Source: a virus | Direction: 5' to 3' (one strand) | Virus genome (UHGV): UHGV-0073881 | Length of the DNA: 64,000 nucleotides | Part shown: piece by piece, positions 15,979 through 21,515 of the stretch | How the letters are laid out: every line of letters begins with the position of its first letter | Position numbering within the stretch: the stretch's first letter is position 1 | The notes under the pieces: generated by a model | The model's database searches: none | Seen by the model: the letters and a program-made list of their open reading frames with translations, nothing else | Told to the model about the DNA's origin: nothing | Translations under genes and position numbers: made by a program

Positions 15979-16008
15979 TTGACAAACACTAAAAAATAGT
16001 GTTATAGT
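15979..16008 (+). promoter_or_regulatory. sigma70-like promoter upstream of tRNA array (TTGACA-N17-TTATAG)
   Basis: -35 TTGACA 15979-15984, -10 TTATAGT at 16002-16008, about 28 nt before first tRNA. Confidence 0.5.
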
Positions 16009-16035: not shown

Positions 16036-16112
16036 CTCTGTTTAGCTCAGTTTGGTAGAGCGTTCCGTTTGGGGCGGTAAGGCCAGAGGTTCAAGTCCTC
16101 TAACAGAGACCA
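16036..16112 (+). tRNA. tRNA-Pro (anticodon TGG), isotype tentative
   Basis: acceptor CTCTGTT/AACAGAG, D-stem GCTC/GAGC, T-arm AGAGG-TTCAAGT-CCTCT, anticodon loop TTTGGGG, CCA encoded. Confidence 0.7.
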
Positions 16113-16119
16113 AATTAAT

Positions 16120-16194
16120 GTCGTAGAAGGCAAATGGTTAGCCACCTGACCTTCAATCAGTTGCTCGCGGGTTCGAATCCCGTCTACGACTCCA
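16120..16194 (+). tRNA. tRNA, anticodon TTC (Glu?), isotype uncertain
   Basis: acceptor GTCGTAG/CTACGAC, T-arm GCGGG-TTCGAAT-CCCGT, CCA encoded; anticodon loop CCTTCAA has C at position 33. Confidence 0.6.
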
Positions 16195-16200
16195 AATTTG

Positions 16201-16269
16201 ACAGAAGACCAAATACAGCAAACAACTTTTACTTTTCGCGCATAGAAAACATAAAAAGCTTGGTCTGGT
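16201..16269 (+). repeat. tRNA-array spacer module A (ACAGAAGACC ... ACAGCAA ... GGTCTGGT)
   Basis: conserved 5-prime ACAGAAGACC and 3-prime GGTCTGGT ends with AT-rich core; 4 copies in array. Confidence 0.6.
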
Positions 16270-16279
16270 CATTAAGAAT

Positions 16280-16356
16280 TGCGGGTATAGAGAAAGGGCG
16301 TCTCACATGTCTCATTAGCATGGTATCGGTAGGTTCGACTCCTGCACCCGCCTCCA
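16280..16356 (+). tRNA. tRNA-Met-like (anticodon CAT)
   Basis: acceptor TGCGGGT/ACCCGCC (1:72 mismatch), T-arm GTAGG-TTCGACT-CCTGC, loop CTCATTA, CCA encoded; weak D-stem. Confidence 0.6.
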
Positions 16357-16361
16357 AATTT

Positions 16362-16425
16362 ACAGAAGACCGTTTACAGCAATTCAAACAATTTTATCGG
16401 AAAATTAAAATGAATACGGTCTGGT
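16362..16425 (+). repeat. tRNA-array spacer module B
   Basis: ACAGAAGACCGTTTACAGCAA ... ACGGTCTGGT. Confidence 0.6.
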
Positions 16426-16437
16426 AATGTTAAACAT

Positions 16438-16514
16438 GGTTAGGAAGCACATAAGGCATGTGCGGTCGGCTGTTAACCGAATGGCACAGGGTTCGAATCC
16501 CTGACTAACCGCCA
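16438..16514 (+). tRNA. tRNA-Asn (anticodon GTT)
   Basis: acceptor GGTTAGG/ACTAACC, D-stem GCAC/GTGC, T-arm CAGGG-TTCGAAT-CCCTG, loop CTGTTAA, CCA encoded. Confidence 0.75.
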
Positions 16515-16524
16515 AAATTTAAAT

Positions 16525-16612
16525 GCGTCGTTATCCCGTAGATGGAAGCGGTGGTGACTGTAAATCACTTGTCATTACGACTCGGTAGGTTCGACTCCTT
16601 CACGGCGCACCA
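16525..16612 (+). tRNA. tRNA-Tyr (anticodon GTA), class II with long variable arm
   Basis: 88 nt; acceptor GCGTCGT/ACGGCGC, anticodon stem GGTGA/TCACT loop CTGTAAA, T-loop TTCGACT, CCA encoded. Confidence 0.7.
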
Positions 16613-16618
16613 AATAAA

Positions 16619-16696
16619 GGTTATGTAGTTTAATCTGGTTAAAATACCTCCCTGTCACGGAGGAAGATGTGGGTTCGAATCCCATCGTAACCGCCA
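16619..16696 (+). tRNA. tRNA-Asp (anticodon GTC)
   Basis: acceptor GGTTATG/CGTAACC, anticodon stem CCTCC/GGAGG loop CTGTCAC, T-arm GTGGG-TTCGAAT-CCCAT, CCA encoded. Confidence 0.75.
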
Positions 16697-16754
16697 ATTT
16701 TGAGAAGGGCTTTTTAGCCCCTCCCTTAAAGAGTTCTTGCGAGTATTCTTTAAA

Positions 16755-16835
16755 GGAGCAGAAGACCAAATTCAGCAAGCAACAAAAATATTTCAAGCCA
16801 ATTAATTTGAAAAATTTAAAACTTGGTCTGGTTCC
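16755..16835 (+). repeat. tRNA-array spacer module C
   Basis: GCAGAAGACCAAATTCAGCAA ... CTTGGTCTGGT. Confidence 0.55.
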
Positions 16836-16844
16836 AACAAATTT

Positions 16845-16969
16845 ACAGAAGACCGTTTACAGCAAGTTAAACAATCTAATTCTCTATGAAAGAAAGGGCG
16901 AAGGTTCGATTCCTTCACACGTTACGGCGTGTTGGTGTAATGGCAGCACTTAAGATGATACGGTCTGGT
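16845..16969 (+). repeat. tRNA-array spacer module D, carrying a tRNA-like T-arm and acceptor-like hairpin
   Basis: ACAGAAGACCGTTTACAGCAA ... GAAGG-TTCGATT-CCTTC (16900-16916), ACACG-TTACGG-CGTGT hairpin (16917-16932) ... ACGGTCTGGT; no full cloverleaf. Confidence 0.55.
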
Positions 16970-17118
16970 AATCCTCTTTGCAGTGACTTATGGAGCTAAT
17001 ATATCGTCCCATGAGTGCCGATGAATCTCTTGAGCATGATTCTAGATTAGCTTACTAAGAGATGACTCTACAAACCCTTTAGCAAGGTTTGCGTAGGTTA
17101 CTGCAAAGATGATTTAAT

Positions 17119-17194
17119 GGAAGTGTAGCAGAATGGTGATGCGGCAGACTTTTAATCTGACAGGCGATGGGTTCGAATCCCTCCACTTCTACCA
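17119..17194 (+). tRNA. tRNA-Lys (anticodon TTT)
   Basis: acceptor GGAAGTG/CACTTCT, anticodon loop CTTTTAA, T-loop TTCGAAT, CCA encoded. Confidence 0.7.
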
Positions 17195-17279
17195 AATTCG
17201 CCCTTAATTGAAGAATACCTACTTCGCGGCTGGAAACACCCACGAAAAATCAATTCTTCTCCAAAGGGCAACTTATTAC

Positions 17280-17356
17280 GGTTCAGTCGCAGATAAGGTA
17301 ATGCAAGGGTTTCATAAGCCCTATGAATGTGGGTTCGACTCCCATCTGAACCTCCA
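17280..17356 (+). tRNA. tRNA with anticodon CAT (Met or Ile2)
   Basis: acceptor GGTTCAG/CTGAACC, anticodon stem AGGGT/GCCCT loop TTCATAA, T-arm GTGGG-TTCGACT-CCCAT, CCA encoded. Confidence 0.75.
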
Positions 17357-17358
17357 AT

Positions 17359-17433
17359 TGTGGGTTAGCATAAATGGTAATGCAAACGGCTGATAACCGT
17401 TAGAAGAGGGTTCGATACCCTCACCTACAACCA
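17359..17433 (+). tRNA. tRNA-Ile (anticodon GAT)
   Basis: acceptor TGTGGGT/ACCTACA, D-stem GCA/TGC, anticodon stem AACGG/CCGTT loop CTGATAA, T-arm GAGGG-TTCGATA-CCCTC, CCA encoded. Confidence 0.75.
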
Positions 17434-17448
17434 ATTCCAATAAAGTTG

Positions 17449-17477
17449 TTGACATTAACATGTGACCACTTTATAGT
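17449..17477 (+). promoter_or_regulatory. strong sigma70-like promoter inside tRNA array (TTGACA-N17-TATAGT)
   Basis: -35 TTGACA 17449-17454, 17-nt spacer, -10 TATAGT 17472-17477; followed by about 320 nt with no ORF and no canonical tRNA. Confidence 0.55.
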
Positions 17478-17801
17478 AACTAAAATACTTCATAATATGT
17501 ATAATTCAAACACCAATACATGAGCGTTAGACGTAACACAATGTGGGGAAATTTGTTGTACATATTCTGAATAGTTTTCGTTAGTGTAGCGTCTATTTTG
17601 CAAACTTAAAAATAAATGCAAACGATAATGTTTTTCTGGCAGTAGCTTAATAGGCTAAACACCAGTGAGGTCTTCCAATCCCTCATCAAAGAATTTGGCG
17701 TACTAGCCCACGGTATGATTAATAAAGTGGGCGACATTCTAAAGGGTATCCCTTATGGGGCTTGGCTTAAATGCAATGAGTACCCTTTAAAATGTTAATT
17801 A

Positions 17802-17883
17802 CGGGGCGTATCTCAGCGGTCTTCTAAACCGCCGTTAACCGAGTAAGTGGAGTATGCGGGTTCGAGTCCTGCCGCCTCGACCA
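17802..17883 (+). tRNA. atypical tRNA-like gene (Arg TCT-like anticodon arm), possible pseudogene
   Basis: acceptor CGGGGCG/CGCCTCG, T-arm GCGGG-TTCGAGT-CCTGC, CCA encoded; stem GCGGT/ACCGC with loop CTTCTAA but no canonical D-arm and a 23-nt segment before the T-arm. Confidence 0.4.
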
Positions 17884-17898
17884 ATTTTGGATGAAATC

Positions 17899-18246
17899 AT
17901 GAAGACTTGTATTAGGTGCAAACTTAGCAAGGATGAAAATGATTTCTACATGAAAGATGGTAGGAGAACTCATTCATACTGTAAAAAGTGTGTTAATGAG
18001 CAAACCATAGAAAGACAAAGAGCACTTAAACTTTCAGCTGTTGAGTACAAAGGTGGGGTTTGTCATGATTGTGGTAAAAGGTATCATCCAGCAGTGTATG
18101 ACTTCCATCATTTGAATCCTTCAGAGAAAGATTTTAACATTGGTCATAGAAAAAGTCTTAAGTTCTCTCAGGAGCTAAAGAACGAACTTGACAAATGTGT
18201 TTTGCTATGTTCAAATTGCCATAGGGTAAGACATGCAAAGTATTAG
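17899..18246 (+). CDS. HNH endonuclease (zinc-finger plus HNH) embedded in tRNA array
   Basis: CxxC...CxxC and FHHLNPSEKD...LLCSNCHRVRH motifs; ORF track 17854 start lies inside the tRNA, so start moved to ATG 17899. Confidence 0.8.
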   Translation: MKTCIRCKLSKDENDFYMKDGRRTHSYCKKCVNEQTIERQRALKLSAVEYKGGVCHDCGKRYHPAVYDFHHLNPSEKDFNIGHRKSLKFSQELKNELDKCVLLCSNCHRVRHAKY

Positions 18247-18383
18247 TTAGCAGATTGCTTAGACGACCTTAACGGGTCTCCTGTAAGGAGGTGGTCTGTA
18301 TCTCATGTTTCCAGAGCATGTAAAAATATTCTGAGAAGGGGCTTTACAGTGTTGTGATAATACGGTAAGCTTCGAATTATAAT

Positions 18384-18466
18384 ATGGGACGATGTTAAGA
18401 CTCTAAGGCATGAGCAACGGCTTCCAACACCGTTTCAAAGGGGTTCAACTCCTCCGTCCCATGCCA
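18384..18466 (+). tRNA. tRNA, possibly Trp (anticodon CCA); atypical
   Basis: acceptor ATGGGAC/GTCCCAT, T-loop TTCAACT, CCA encoded; stem AACGG/CCGTT around TTCCAAC; extra nucleotides between acceptor and D region. Confidence 0.45.
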
Positions 18467-18478
18467 AAGTCTTATTAG

Positions 18479-18567
18479 GGGTAGGTAGCGGCTAATGGTA
18501 GCCAAACTGTCTTGAAAACAGTTGCCACTGTAGAGATACGGTGAGGGTTCGACTCCTTTACTTACCG
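18479..18567 (+). tRNA. tRNA-Ser (anticodon TGA), class II
   Basis: acceptor GGTAGGT/ACTTACC, D-stem GGC/GCC, anticodon stem ACTGT/ACAGT loop CTTGAAA, long variable arm, T-loop TTCGACT; CCA not encoded. Confidence 0.7.
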
Positions 18568-18817
18568 CCTAATAAGATTTAAAGCCGCGCTTCGTTCGGA
18601 TGTTGCGTTAGGTTTCACTTCGTGTATTGTCGTACACGATGTTGAGAAAGCACCTAGTAGGTGTCACGGAGAAGAGATAGCATCAAGCTCTCCAAAGGTT
18701 CTAGTCACCGGATTAAACAAGACTATGCAAAGACTGATTAGGTCTTTTTAGATAACTTCTGAGGCAAACTATACCATTGTTGCTTTGGGTCTTGGAAGTT
18801 CTCTACAAAGATTTAAT

Positions 18818-18894
18818 GCACCTATAGCCCAATTGGAAGAGGCAGCAGACTTAGAATCTGTTCAGTGTGAGTTCGACTCTCTCTAGGTGTACCA
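18818..18894 (+). tRNA. tRNA with anticodon TAG (Leu-type anticodon, class I length)
   Basis: acceptor GCACCTA/TAGGTGT, D-arm CCCAATTGGAAGAGG, anticodon stem GCAGA/TCTGT loop CTTAGAA, T-loop TTCGACT, CCA encoded. Confidence 0.6.
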
Positions 18895-18901
18895 AATTAA
18901 T

Positions 18902-18977
18902 GCAGGTGTAGCAAAATGGTTATGCGGCTGACTCTTAATCAGTAAGACGATGGGTTCAATTCCCTCCACCTGTACCA
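18902..18977 (+). tRNA. tRNA with anticodon CTT (Lys?)
   Basis: acceptor GCAGGTG/CACCTGT, anticodon stem GCTGA/TCAGT loop CTCTTAA, T-loop TTCAATT, CCA encoded. Confidence 0.6.
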
Positions 18978-18983
18978 AACATT

Positions 18984-19059
18984 GGGGATGTAGTTTACAT
19001 GGTTAAAACATAAGTTTTGCAAACTTAAGTACAGGGTTCAATTCCATGCTTCTCCACCA
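18984..19059 (+). tRNA. tRNA-Ala (anticodon TGC)
   Basis: acceptor GGGGATG/CTTCTCC with G3:U70 identity pair, anticodon stem TAAGT/ACTTA loop TTTGCAA, T-loop TTCAATT, CCA encoded. Confidence 0.75.
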
Positions 19060-19065
19060 ATTAGT

Positions 19066-19140
19066 GCATCCATAGTTTAAACGGGAAAATTACAGTCTTC
19101 CAAACTGAGGTTGAGGGTTCGATTCCCTCTGGATGCTCCA
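19066..19140 (+). tRNA. tRNA-Gly (anticodon TCC)
   Basis: acceptor GCATCCA/TGGATGC, T-arm GAGGG-TTCGATT-CCCTC, anticodon loop CTTCCAA, CCA encoded. Confidence 0.75.
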
Positions 19141-19146
19141 ATTCAT

Positions 19147-19222
19147 GCTCCTATCGTATAACTGGCTATTACGGTTGTCTTGTAAGCAACTTATCAGGGT
19201 TCGAATCCTTGTGGGAGCACCA
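19147..19222 (+). tRNA. tRNA-Thr (anticodon TGT)
   Basis: acceptor GCTCCTA/TGGGAGC, D-stem CGTA/TACG, anticodon stem GTTGT/GCAAC loop CTTGTAA, T-arm CAGGG-TTCGAAT-CCTTG, CCA encoded. Confidence 0.7.
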
Positions 19223-19316
19223 ATTTGAGGTCAAGTGAAAGACCGCTTGAGTCAACTGAAGACCGTAACAAATTCCACGGAGTTGAGTTAGCGGCACAAC
19301 TTCAGACCTCTTTAAA

Positions 19317-19391
19317 GCTCGCTTAGTTTATATGGTAAAGCCCCATCCTTACAAGTTGGTGAAGAAGGTTCAAGTCCTTCAGCGAGTACCA
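19317..19391 (+). tRNA. tRNA-Val (anticodon TAC)
   Basis: acceptor GCTCGCT/AGCGAGT, T-arm GAAGG-TTCAAGT-CCTTC, anticodon loop CTTACAA, CCA encoded. Confidence 0.7.
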
Positions 19392-19392
19392 A

Positions 19393-19470
19393 GTTCCAGT
19401 ATCCCAATTGGCAGAGGATGCAAGCTCAAACCTTGTATTAGTGACGGTTCGAATCCGTCTTGGAACACCA
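19393..19470 (+). tRNA. tRNA with anticodon CAA (Leu-type anticodon, class I length)
   Basis: acceptor GTTCCAG/TTGGAAC, D-stem ATCC/GGAT with loop CAATTGGCAGA, anticodon stem GCAAG/CTTGT loop CTCAAAC, T-arm GACGG-TTCGAAT-CCGTC, CCA encoded. Confidence 0.65.
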
Positions 19471-19487
19471 AATTTTAGGAGATTCCT

Positions 19488-19700
19488 ATGAAGCCTTATG
19501 GTAGACACGGTAAAGTTGAAATTGCAAGTTGTGGTTGCTGTGCTTCTCACGATGGTGAAGAAGATTACTACAAGTGGCGTACAGACCATCGTAGACGCTT
19601 TCTCAGAAGAGATAAGAAGAAAGCTAGACAGGAATCTCGAAAAGATATTGCAGAATTAGTTCAAATGGATAGAGCAGCAACCTACGAAGTTGTTAGTTAG
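19488..19700 (+). CDS. hypothetical small basic protein (70 aa); 3-prime end overlaps tRNA-Arg
   Basis: ORF track; RBS AGGAG 7 nt before ATG; last 50 nt overlap the tRNA at 19650. Confidence 0.35.
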   Translation: MKPYGRHGKVEIASCGCCASHDGEEDYYKWRTDHRRRFLRRDKKKARQESRKDIAELVQMDRAATYEVVS

Positions 19701-19723
19701 GGGTTCGAATCCCTTATTCTGCA
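19650..19723 (+). tRNA. tRNA-Arg (anticodon ACG)
   Basis: acceptor GCAGAAT/ATTCTGC, D-stem GTTC/GAGC, anticodon stem GCAAC/GTTGT loop CTACGAA, T-arm AGGGG-TTCGAAT-CCCTT; CCA not encoded. Confidence 0.75.
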
Positions 19724-19744
19724 CAAATTTTAGAAGGTAATTAT

Positions 19745-19972
19745 ATGCGTAAACTCATTATTGAAAGGCATAAAGATGCTGACAAGATTGAAACAACACA
19801 AGTTGGGGACACTGACTTCATTCTTGTAGGTTGGAAATGTGACCCAATAGCAGCTATGAAGGTTGTTCATGGTTTTGCAGGAATTGAATTTAATCAAATC
19901 ATATTTGAAACGCTATTACCAGAAAATCAGGATACGTGTAATAACGCATATATCCTGACAAGAGTTCGTTAG
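19745..19972 (+). CDS. hypothetical protein (75 aa) between tRNA genes
   Basis: ORF track; ATG start; stop abuts tRNA-Gln. Confidence 0.4.
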   Translation: MRKLIIERHKDADKIETTQVGDTDFILVGWKCDPIAAMKVVHGFAGIEFNQIIFETLLPENQDTCNNAYILTRVR

Positions 19973-20046
19973 GGGATTAGTTTACAAGGTTAAAACCTCG
20001 GTCTTTGAAATCGAAGAAGTTGGTTCAATTCCAACATCCCCCGCCA
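19971..20046 (+). tRNA. tRNA-Gln (anticodon TTG)
   Basis: acceptor AGGGGAT/ATCCCCC (1:72 mismatch), anticodon stem TCGGT/ATCGA loop CTTTGAA, T-arm GTTGG-TTCAATT-CCAAC, CCA encoded. Confidence 0.7.
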
Positions 20047-20048
20047 AT

Positions 20049-20127
20049 GCTCCATTACTCCAATTGGCAGAGAGGCCAGACTTAAAATCTGTGTTATGTA
20101 TCGGTTCGAATCCGATATGGAGTACCA
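20049..20127 (+). tRNA. tRNA with anticodon TAA (Leu-type anticodon, class I length)
   Basis: acceptor GCTCCAT/ATGGAGT, D-arm CCAATTGGCAGAG, anticodon loop CTTAAAA, T-arm ATCGG-TTCGAAT-CCGAT, CCA encoded. Confidence 0.65.
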
Positions 20128-20133
20128 AATATT

Positions 20134-20209
20134 AGCAGTGTAGCATAACTGGCAATGCTCCAGCCTCTGAAGCTGAAAGATTAAGGTTCAAATCCTTACA
20201 CTGCTGCCA
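20134..20209 (+). tRNA. tRNA with anticodon CTG (Gln)
   Basis: acceptor AGCAGTG/CACTGCT, D-stem GCAT/ATGC, anticodon loop CTCTGAA, T-arm TTAAG-GTTCAAAT-CCTTA, CCA encoded. Confidence 0.65.
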
Positions 20210-20240
20210 CTTCTAAGGGTTCTTACGAGAGTCCTTAAAT

Positions 20241-20317
20241 GTGGCCTTATCATAAATGGATAATGACCCATGCTGTGAACATGGTCTATACGGGTTCGAT
20301 TCCCGTAGGTCACCCCA
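20241..20317 (+). tRNA. tRNA-His (anticodon GTG)
   Basis: acceptor GTGGCCT/AGGTCAC with C73, D-stem TCAT/ATGA, anticodon stem CCATG/CATGG loop CTGTGAA, T-arm ACGGG-TTCGATT-CCCGT, CCA encoded. Confidence 0.75.
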
Positions 20318-20324
20318 ATTTTAA

Positions 20325-20401
20325 TAGCTCAATTAGCTTATATGGTTAAAGCGCGTGTCTGAAAAACATGAGAACAGGGTTCAAATCCCGATGGGCTACC
20401 A
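20325..20401 (+). tRNA. tRNA-Phe (anticodon GAA), irregular acceptor/D junction
   Basis: anticodon stem CGTGT/ACATG loop CTGAAAA, D-stem GCTT/AAGC, acceptor TAGCTCA/TGGGCTA, T-loop TTCAAAT, CCA at 20399-20401. Confidence 0.6.
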
Positions 20402-20417
20402 ACTTTATAGGTGCATA

Positions 20418-21152
20418 ATGAAAGAGATGACAGGACAAGGTAAAGAGATTTTCAATCTCCTTAAATCCGGTAACGGGTTCTCTAACCCTCTTATTACTGG
20501 TGCAGCAGTTCTTGGTGGTACAGTTGCTGCTTCTCAGTCATTAATCACTTCAATTAGTTCTGTATCAGACCCAGCTACCCAGCAAATCCTTATTGCTGCT
20601 GGCTTGACAACTGCCTTACTAAGCAGCTTTACAACAAGCCTTGGTAGCACCACTTCAACGACAACTACTTTAACTGACTATGGACAGAAGTCTGTAGATG
20701 AGTTTTCACAGCGTATGCAGGTAGCCAAAGGATACTCTAATGTTATGGGAGCAGCGGGTGAACAAGTTGGATGTACACCGTTTAGTGGAATCATGGGAGT
20801 TGCTACTGAATACGGTAACAAGGCTATGGATTTGATTAACACCTCCATAGATGCCGTAAACAGCGTTCTAAGCGACTTACAGGATGCAATTGATAAAGGA
20901 CTAGCAACCATCTCTGACCTCGCTACACAAGCTGTTACAGCGATTAATGAAGGTATGGCAAAGATTACTGCCTACGCTAATGAAGTGGCTCAGATGATTG
21001 CAGACGAAGCAGCAATGATTGCAGAGTATCTAAAAACCAATATTAATGGTTTCCTTGCAAATGTTTTACCAGATTGGTTTAACGATGATTGTAAGACGGG
21101 TGTAATTGATACAATTGCAACTCCAGAGATGAAAGAAGCTCTAAACAAATAA
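20418..21152 (+). CDS. hypothetical Ala/Ser/Thr-rich protein embedded in tRNA operon (about 244 aa)
   Basis: ORF track 20355-21152; start moved to first ATG after tRNA-Phe (MKEMTGQ) with AGGTG RBS. Confidence 0.6.
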   Translation: MKEMTGQGKEIFNLLKSGNGFSNPLITGAAVLGGTVAASQSLITSISSVSDPATQQILIAAGLTTALLSSFTTSLGSTTSTTTTLTDYGQKSVDEFSQRMQVAKGYSNVMGAAGEQVGCTPFSGIMGVATEYGNKAMDLINTSIDAVNSVLSDLQDAIDKGLATISDLATQAVTAINEGMAKITAYANEVAQMIADEAAMIAEYLKTNINGFLANVLPDWFNDDCKTGVIDTIATPEMKEALNK

Positions 21153-21155
21153 TTT

Positions 21156-21248
21156 GGAAGATTAACCCTAAAAGGTAAGGGAGCAGTTTGCTAAACTGCC
21201 AGTAGCTGAGAAATTGGTGTACCAGTTCAAGTCTGGTATCTTCCTCCA
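21156..21248 (+). tRNA. tRNA-Ser (anticodon GCT), class II
   Basis: 93 nt; acceptor GGAAGAT/ATCTTCC, D-stem CCC/GGG, anticodon stem GCAGT/ACTGC loop TTGCTAA, long variable arm, T-arm ACCAG-TTCAAGT-CTGGT, CCA encoded. Confidence 0.75.
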
Positions 21249-21254
21249 AATTTT

Positions 21255-21330
21255 GCATTGGTGTCAGAAATGGATATGTACCTGTCTGCAAAACAGGTTT
21301 ATGAGGGTTCGAGTCCCTTCCAATGCTCCA
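21255..21330 (+). tRNA. tRNA-Cys (anticodon GCA)
   Basis: acceptor GCATTGG/CCAATGC, anticodon stem CCTGT/ACAGG loop CTGCAAA, T-arm GAGGG-TTCGAGT-CCCTT, CCA encoded. Confidence 0.8.
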
Positions 21331-21490: not shown

Positions 21491-21515
21491 GACGGTCTCT
21501 GCGCCGTCTTTTTTC
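21491..21515 (+). terminator. rho-independent terminator
   Basis: stem GACGG/CCGTC, loop TCTCTGCG, then TTTTTTC. Confidence 0.6.

Follow-up and report, generated by a model that had tools for sequence, protein, structure and literature searches.

Within the 64,000-nt stretch of virus genome UHGV-0073881 that we analysed (hereafter the window), a 70-aa open reading frame (ORF) runs into a tRNA-Arg(ACG) gene and takes its stop codon from inside that gene. This raises the question of whether the ORF is a chance reading frame or whether protein-coding and tRNA sequences overlap here, the two readings that a preliminary description of the locus had offered. The features on which that description rested were confirmed: the ORF, with its AGGAG ribosome binding site (RBS), its ATG at 19488 and its end at 19700, was read directly from the sequence and the ORF listing, and a well-formed tRNA-Arg(ACG) at 19650–19723 was called by ARAGORN and matched by Rfam. 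The same-strand overlap of 51 nt (19650–19700) therefore stands. The features of the locus are as follows.

19393–19470, + strand: tRNA-Leu(CAA), the upstream neighbour (ARAGORN; Rfam, 44 bits).
19477–19481, + strand: Shine-Dalgarno sequence AGGAG, with a 6-nt spacer to the ATG (sequence).
19488–19700, + strand: the 70-aa ORF (213 nt), a short allele of the phrog_10765 family, Moogle gp84-like (ORF listing, phrog_10765 match).
19488–19649, + strand: codons 1–54, the conserved protein core MKPYG..GK.E.A.CGCC...R...K..ARQ (purifying selection, homologue alignments).
19649–19651, + strand: proposed deletion junction, with TGC microhomology (alignments of long and short alleles).
19650–19700, + strand: the overlap, in which codons 55–70 (AELVQMDRAATYEVVS) and the stop codon are tRNA positions 1–51.
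19650–19723, + strand: tRNA-Arg(ACG), an intact cloverleaf (ARAGORN, 19650–19724; Rfam RF00005).
19698–19700, + strand: the ORF stop TAG, which in tRNA-Arg spans the end of the variable loop (one base) and the start of the T stem (two bases) (sequence).
19724–19726, + strand: CAA at the place of the encoded 3′ CCA of tRNA-Arg (comparison with related copies).

The length of the overlap alone is within chance. The remaining two frames into tRNA-Arg, read from the sequence, stay open for 2 or 6 codons before a stop, and an open run of 16 is nothing unusual. What lies beyond chance is the coding signal in codons 1–54 and the recurrence of the arrangement in 41 of the 42 GenBank phages that carry the gene. 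We consider it probable that a real 80-codon gene lost 82 nt, that its frame then ran on into tRNA-Arg, and that it is translated from a tRNA precursor whose processing leaves non-stop fragments.

The ORF lies in a co-oriented tRNA block of 5.3 kb (16036–21330 of the window) with 23 tRNAs called by ARAGORN and 23 Rfam matches, and this cluster is that of a FelixO1-like myovirus (Ounavirinae, Mooglevirus/Suspvirus type). A 701-base stretch surrounding the overlap matched Shigella phage ESh21 at 98%, and ~250 Ounavirinae records were matched overall. The ATG at 19488 is situated 17 nt beyond the 3′ CCA of tRNA-Leu(CAA).

Several other features of the cluster were observed along the way. A sequence at 16120–16191 matched the Rfam tRNA model (53.7 bits) and was uncalled by ARAGORN; in FelixO1, the corresponding position, immediately downstream of tRNA-Pro, is taken by a tRNA-Glu(TTC) (Table 1, PMC3185647). 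Conversely, the ARAGORN calls at 16280–16356 (tRNA-Met) and 20241–20317 (tRNA-His) fell below the Rfam gathering score. The counterpart tRNA-Met of FelixO1 is given 28.9 (Cove) and tRNA number 20 is termed a pseudo tRNA (Table 1, PMC3185647), and the FelixO1 tRNA-His is flagged as a pseudogene in RefSeq. A 79-nt tRNA-like sequence at 17802–17880 (Rfam, 31.7 bits; no ARAGORN call) has, by eye, the anticodon loop CTTCTAA (Arg-TCT), ends in CCA and is unusually long in its variable region. The longest-ORF start of an HNH endonuclease ORF (17854–18246) is an ATG inside the T-arm of this sequence (MRVRVLPPRP...), an overlap that is probably an artefact because the likely true HNH start is the ATG at 17899. 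Similarly, the ORF at 20355–21152 has its longest-ORF start, a GTG at 20355, inside tRNA-Phe (20326–20401). Its relatives are 244-aa proteins (PF23854, DUF7217; ‘putative membrane protein’ in Sf14) that start at the ATG at 20418, 17 nt after tRNA-Phe, with the same tRNA-Shine-Dalgarno-ATG spacing as for the 70-aa ORF. Downstream of tRNA-Arg, a 75-aa ORF (19745–19972; phrog_14202, E 4.5e-34) shares the last two bases of its TAG stop with tRNA-Gln (19971). Moogle, Michonne, Mordin and Sf14 lack the phrog_14202 gene, SUSP1, FelixO1 and others have a 185-aa ORF in its place, and it occurs twice in tandem in a genome deposited as CP164854.1 (L016). This last record (88,055 bp) is a complete Mooglevirus-like genome with the long allele described below and was submitted as a plasmid of Escherichia coli (protein AB2J12_25360); instead of a plasmid, it may be a phage in the carrier state or a contaminating one.

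Judged from its sequence and that of its relatives, the tRNA-Arg(ACG) is a real tRNA gene. It scored 60.3 bits against Rfam RF00005 (gathering score 29; model positions 1–71 of 71), fourth best of the cluster’s 23 tRNA matches. Across 15 distinct variants, none of 315 stem cells was unpaired; 7 pairs varied, and 3 of these had changed on both sides (5:69 AT to GC, 31:41 AT to GC and 52:64 GC to AT, linear numbering). These pair counts come from a hand-corrected alignment, since MAFFT had set a FelixO1 gap in the anticodon stem. The anticodon loop was invariant in relatives. The window copy ends in ACAA where 33 other copies compared have ACCA or GCCA, and an encoded CCA follows 21 of the window’s 23 ARAGORN tRNAs, the exceptions being this tRNA-Arg and tRNA-Ser (18480–18569). 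The CAA at 19724–19726 is either a real point mutation needing CCA repair or a sequencing error. A host CCA-adding enzyme can restore an absent CCA, so the CAA does not disqualify the tRNA-Arg. That this tRNA-Arg is a mere remnant, decaying or tRNA-like, and the ORF alone matters has next to no probability: the replacement of the encoded CCA in the window copy alone points that way, but the Rfam score among the cluster’s best, the complete pairing with compensatory double changes, the invariant anticodon loop and the repairable 3′ end all argue against it.

We then asked whether the ORF is a gene. It matched phrog_10765 over its full length (E 8.6e-51; residues 1–70 on profile positions 1–70 of 70), and tblastn found the gene in 42 GenBank phage records, all Mooglevirus or Suspvirus, of which 41 hold the short allele that overlaps tRNA-Arg. 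In relatives’ records the ORF is usually annotated as a hypothetical protein overlapping tRNA-Arg, and it was left unannotated by the depositors of Sf14, 3HA14, KMM2, KMM4 and HP1. The short-allele protein cluster has 80 member sequences, and a metagenome scan added only three further short alleles, with an identical junction. An exhaustive HMMER and profile search also recovered free-standing homologues of 52–63 aa (41–49% identity) on unrelated phage contigs (P0005, P0006, P0008 and P0009), which align with ORF residues 1–58. The contigs of these distant homologues are without tRNAs, and one, of 77 kb, carries an SU10-type portal (podovirus). Core-domain homologues at L137:6001–6159 and L032:310–501 adjoin terminase and portal genes (SU10-type) of an unrelated ~77-kb phage, hence the family is not tied to tRNA clusters. 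A 5347-aa match from the exhaustive search (P0007) was dropped as spurious, as it was without the Cys motif.

The core common to the distant members reads MKPyG..GK.E.A.CGCC...R...K..ARQ. Residues A13, C15, G16, C17, C18, R31, K43, A46, R47 and Q48 were invariant in 9 sequences, and M1, K2, P3, G5, K9 and E11 among 7 aligned sequences; P0009 lacks these six positions because it was called from an internal Met. Given these homologues and their shared core, conservation in the family covers roughly residues 1–50, all of which are kept in the window ORF. The signals for translation are conserved as well: TAGGAGATTCCTATG, the Shine-Dalgarno region, and the ATG were both invariant in five genera-spanning relatives, and Felixounaviruses keep GAGGAGAGCACTATG at the equivalent Shine-Dalgarno position. 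The Sf14 copy has an in-frame 3-nt deletion. Conservation of the frame in relatives had been set beforehand as a check, and the ORF was kept: across two genera, 16 distinct short-allele haplotypes included none with a frameshift or premature stop.

The pattern of substitution agreed with a protein-coding core. Among 19 nucleotide haplotypes of codons 1–54, drawn from long and short alleles, variable sites fell 4/4/19 by codon position (P = 9e-5; pN/pS 0.15), and short alleles alone gave 4/4/17 with the same pN/pS of 0.15. The other two frames contained stops and gave ratios of 2.55 and 0.46. Codons 1–54 are thus under purifying selection. The preliminary description’s suggestion of a chance reading frame, annotated as the longest frame with an RBS-like motif between two tRNA genes, has accordingly a very small probability. 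In its favour, the ORF is short, has no Pfam or NCBIfam match, was passed over by the several depositors named above and shares a cluster with two longest-ORF calls (at 17854 and 20355) that start inside tRNAs artefactually; the third-position bias confined to one frame, the homologues in unrelated phage contigs, the Shine-Dalgarno sequence and ATG conserved across genera and the in-frame indel of Sf14 outweigh these points. The ORF is, on the evidence of its conservation, a genuine small phage gene and not a chance frame.

The tail behaved differently from the core. In codons 55–70, variable sites fell 3/3/2 by codon position and pN/pS was 0.85; third-position bias was absent, every variant was compatible with the cloverleaf, and these codons therefore evolve as tRNA and not as protein. 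The columns of the TAG stop were equally invariant in tRNA-Arg variants without any ORF reading through. As the shared 51 nt are constrained by the tRNA only, the overlap is not dual coding (overprinting). The idea of a true coding/tRNA overlap thus holds at the level of the DNA and fails as dual coding.

Sequence searches of Pfam, NCBIfam and PDB with the ORF protein gave no usable relatives, and profile searches found no nuclease motif or match in its family. The AlphaFold2 model was weak (mean pLDDT 66.5, with the Cys-rich N-terminus < 50) and consisted of one long, very basic helix (29–69), which the tRNA-encoded tail simply extends. Three invariant Cys and an Arg/Lys-rich helix might, as a guess, indicate metal and nucleic-acid binding.

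How the gene came to end inside a tRNA is indicated by a longer allele. Shigella phage Silverhawkium gp86 is an 80-aa allele whose TAA lies one base upstream of tRNA-Arg, and at least 10 further contigs encode an 80-aa protein 96% identical to it (P0002). A single 82-nt gap separates the long and short alleles, lying between ...ATATTGC and ...ATAATGC/AGAATT, with a 3-nt TGC microhomology. The nearest long/short pair (L016 and L022) had 6 mismatches in ~356 nt plus the one 82-nt gap. We propose that an 80-codon gene lost its stop and its final 26 codons to an 82-nt deletion at the TGC microhomology, after which the frame would have continued into tRNA-Arg to stop at a TAG of variable-loop and T-stem bases. 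The conserved core (~first 50 residues) would have stayed intact with purifying selection continuing, and the 16-residue tail would be a by-product, with the tRNA alone dictating its sequence. A point against a deletion is that the microhomology at the junction is only 3 nt.

Long alleles occupied two clades of the N-terminal tree, and their tails were identical over 78 nt while their N-terminal parts differed at 12 sites, for which reason recombination is preferred over recurrent independent deletion. The indel is a segregating polymorphism moved by recombination or, less likely with a 3-nt microhomology, a recurrent deletion. Both alleles are in circulation in a recombining Mooglevirus/Suspvirus population.

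The direction of the change is suggested by the Felixounaviruses. FelixO1 (L007:1198–1305) and DE7 (L008:1198–1305) have a 35-aa mini-ORF (phrog_13848) between tRNA-Leu(CAA) and tRNA-Arg(ACG). In these phages and in IMG/VR Felixounaviruses, the RBS and ATG are kept in the spacer, codons ~3–52 are missing, and IAKKFRASYLNRRKNKVCEKLYGVLVG follows. Compared with the long-allele tail, IAKKFRASYLNRRKNKVCEKLYGVLVG was identical at 16 of 27 residues, with nucleotide differences of 8/7/14 by codon position; by tblastn, the long-allele tail and the mini-ORF were 55–58% alike over 31 aa (E 0.2–1), which is weak by itself. The phrog_13848 profile matched the long allele (P0001) at E 5.6e-4 and the FelixO1 mini-ORF at 1e-15. 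The Felixounavirus tail and the long-allele tail are probably homologous, a view that owes most to their shared position and frame. When IMG/VR was scanned with a degenerate 17-mer for Felixounavirus-type tails, the hits were mostly random, with 3 of 103 stretches relevant. The mini-ORF extends 10 nt into tRNA-Arg and has its TAG stop inside the tRNA, a 2-nt loss having put its own TAA out of frame. In alignments, the phrog_13848 C-terminal segment, IAK.FR.S.L.RR......KLYGVL.G, was absent from the window ORF, a consequence of the 82-nt deletion. Since Felixounaviruses keep the same start and the C-terminal part at the same spot, the long form is taken as ancestral, and the simplest history would start from an 80-codon ancestor, which lost an internal stretch in frame in Felixounavirus and 82 nt at its 3′ end in Mooglevirus/Suspvirus.

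The position of the stop codon has consequences for expression. Near-consensus promoter-like sites were found at 15979, 17449 and 18354, and a hairpin resembling a terminator follows tRNA-Cys at 21491, although such consensus matches occur at chance frequency; the consensus scan gave no promoter-like site just upstream of the ORF. Because the promoter-like sites lie only upstream of tRNA blocks, the ORF is most likely translated from a polycistronic tRNA precursor, and these consensus matches would fit a single transcription unit for the ORF and the tRNAs. Maturation of bacterial tRNAs involves RNase P cleavage at the mature 5′ end, which here would fall at 19649/19650, the boundary of codons 54 and 55 and upstream of the ORF stop. 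The frame is open from 19488 to this predicted site at 19649, so an ORF fragment cut there would have no in-frame stop. As cleavage would remove the stop codon, we infer that the full 70-aa product could come only from unprocessed precursor, on which ribosomes would have to unfold the 5′ half of tRNA-Arg to complete it. Processed ORF fragments would be non-stop mRNAs, passed to tmRNA-type rescue (trans-translation). Translation, the 70-aa product and the fate of these fragments are in this way predicted from the sequence. In the long allele the predicted RNase P cut falls one base after the UAA, and normal termination should therefore still be possible.

With this geometry, the overlap could be adaptive: ribosomes would unfold the tRNA 5′ half and RNase P would destroy the message, such that the level of the small protein is coupled inversely to tRNA-Arg maturation and the deletion allele was selected for the coupling. 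The predominance of the short allele, with exactly one junction everywhere, and a layout that sets translation against processing on one molecule are consistent with this. Frequency aside, however, we saw no sign of selection for the junction; the tail is without protein-level constraint, at least 11 genomes or contigs still carry the long allele, Felixounaviruses manage without the core altogether, and one deletion spread by recombination also predicts an identical junction. We regard selection for such coupling as quite improbable, and it is improbable, too, that the deletion allele has been kept because the precursor RNA then yields either a 70-aa message, with ribosomes unfolding the tRNA 5′ half, or a tRNA and a stop-less message that goes to rescue, its product being degraded. 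If true, this would be a phage counterpart of mitochondrial tRNA punctuation, serving to time a small basic protein or to set its dosage.

A stronger challenge to our account is that the short-allele gene may be effectively dead, with fast RNase P cleavage leaving stop-less copies and a product that is tagged and degraded, and with the coding signal kept only by recombination with functional long alleles and by the youth of the deletion. The sequence itself shows that no stop is left ahead of the RNase P site, alleles have clearly been exchanged by recombination, and Felixounaviruses have lost the whole N-terminal core at this locus, so that a sister genus can do without the core. The selection signal in short alleles could date in part from linkage to the long tail, and allele exchange weakens, without removing, the case for selection continuing after truncation. 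Better evidence for post-truncation selection is given by counts within clades: in four clades with short alleles only, the polymorphic codons were synonymous in 11 cases and non-synonymous in 7 (P = 1.2e-4), where random change would give 19% synonymous. With polymorphism still synonymous-biased in these clades, with the short allele in the majority (both in GenBank records and in its cluster of member sequences) and with its haplotypes from two genera uniformly intact, we consider a dead gene unlikely, and prefer a truncated gene that is still under selection.

For annotation, the CDS at 19488–19700 is worth keeping, with a remark that its last 16 codons are tRNA sequence; gene-calling pipelines often drop CDSs that overlap tRNAs or keep them uncommented, and the depositors of these phages did both. 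For evolution, one 80-codon ancestor would have been cut back at one end in one genus and at the other end in its sister, both remnants retaining the original start and borrowing a stop inside tRNA-Arg, with long and short alleles still segregating. This natural allele pair may also offer a handle on the competition between translation and RNase P on a tRNA-mRNA precursor, and on whether messages of this kind enter the tmRNA pathway.

Among known systems, the closest are the phage genes Moogle gp84, Michonne gp87, Mordin_86, SUSP1 gp135 and CHB7 gp87 (phrog_10765), which have the same 213-nt ORF and the same 51-nt overlap with tRNA-Arg(ACG); proteins of the Moogle gp84 type are 87–100% identical, and the window holds another copy with no substantial difference. 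Silverhawkium gp86 and the E. coli ‘plasmid’ protein AB2J12_25360 share the locus, start and core (residues 1–54 91–98% identical) but, unlike the window ORF, have 26 further native codons and their own TAA, with no tRNA overlap. The Felixounavirus mini-ORF resembles the window ORF in locus, RBS, ATG and run into tRNA-Arg, yet it has lost the core and retained the C-terminal part, opposite to what is seen in the window.

Farther afield, the nearest system in concept, which differs in how the stop is supplied, is the tRNA punctuation of mitochondria, reportedly described by Ojala, Montoya and Attardi in 1981, where protein genes abut or overlap downstream tRNA genes. As in the window, where a common precursor and its processing are predicted, coding regions are packed against tRNAs in one precursor, mRNA ends are set by tRNA excision, and a complete stop is absent upstream of the tRNA 5′ cleavage site. 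In mitochondria, truncated stops (U or UA) are completed by polyadenylation. We rejected such completion for the window: the sequence before the tRNA reads ...GAU AUU, and addition of A’s to this last codon gives AUU AAA, which holds no stop. The bacterial host, unlike the mitochondrial case, has tmRNA rescue.

A search of the literature for the ORF/tRNA-Arg overlap found no paper discussing it. T4 segB and its neighbours are ORFs interspersed among phage tRNA genes (PMC2330249), and the HNH genes of FelixO1 are embedded in its tRNA cluster (PMC3185647). In both, as in the window, small ORFs and homing endonuclease genes stand among co-oriented tRNA genes, but those genes have their own stop codons, unlike the window ORF. 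Overprinted, dual-coding viral genes (reviewed in PMC8227390) likewise place one DNA stretch within two same-strand gene products; there both products constrain the shared DNA, whereas the tRNA alone does so in the window. Set beside these systems, the ORF and tRNA, both already annotated publicly, have an ordinary explanation, deletion and run-on, which is not a new kind of coding and leaves the current understanding of coding unchanged.
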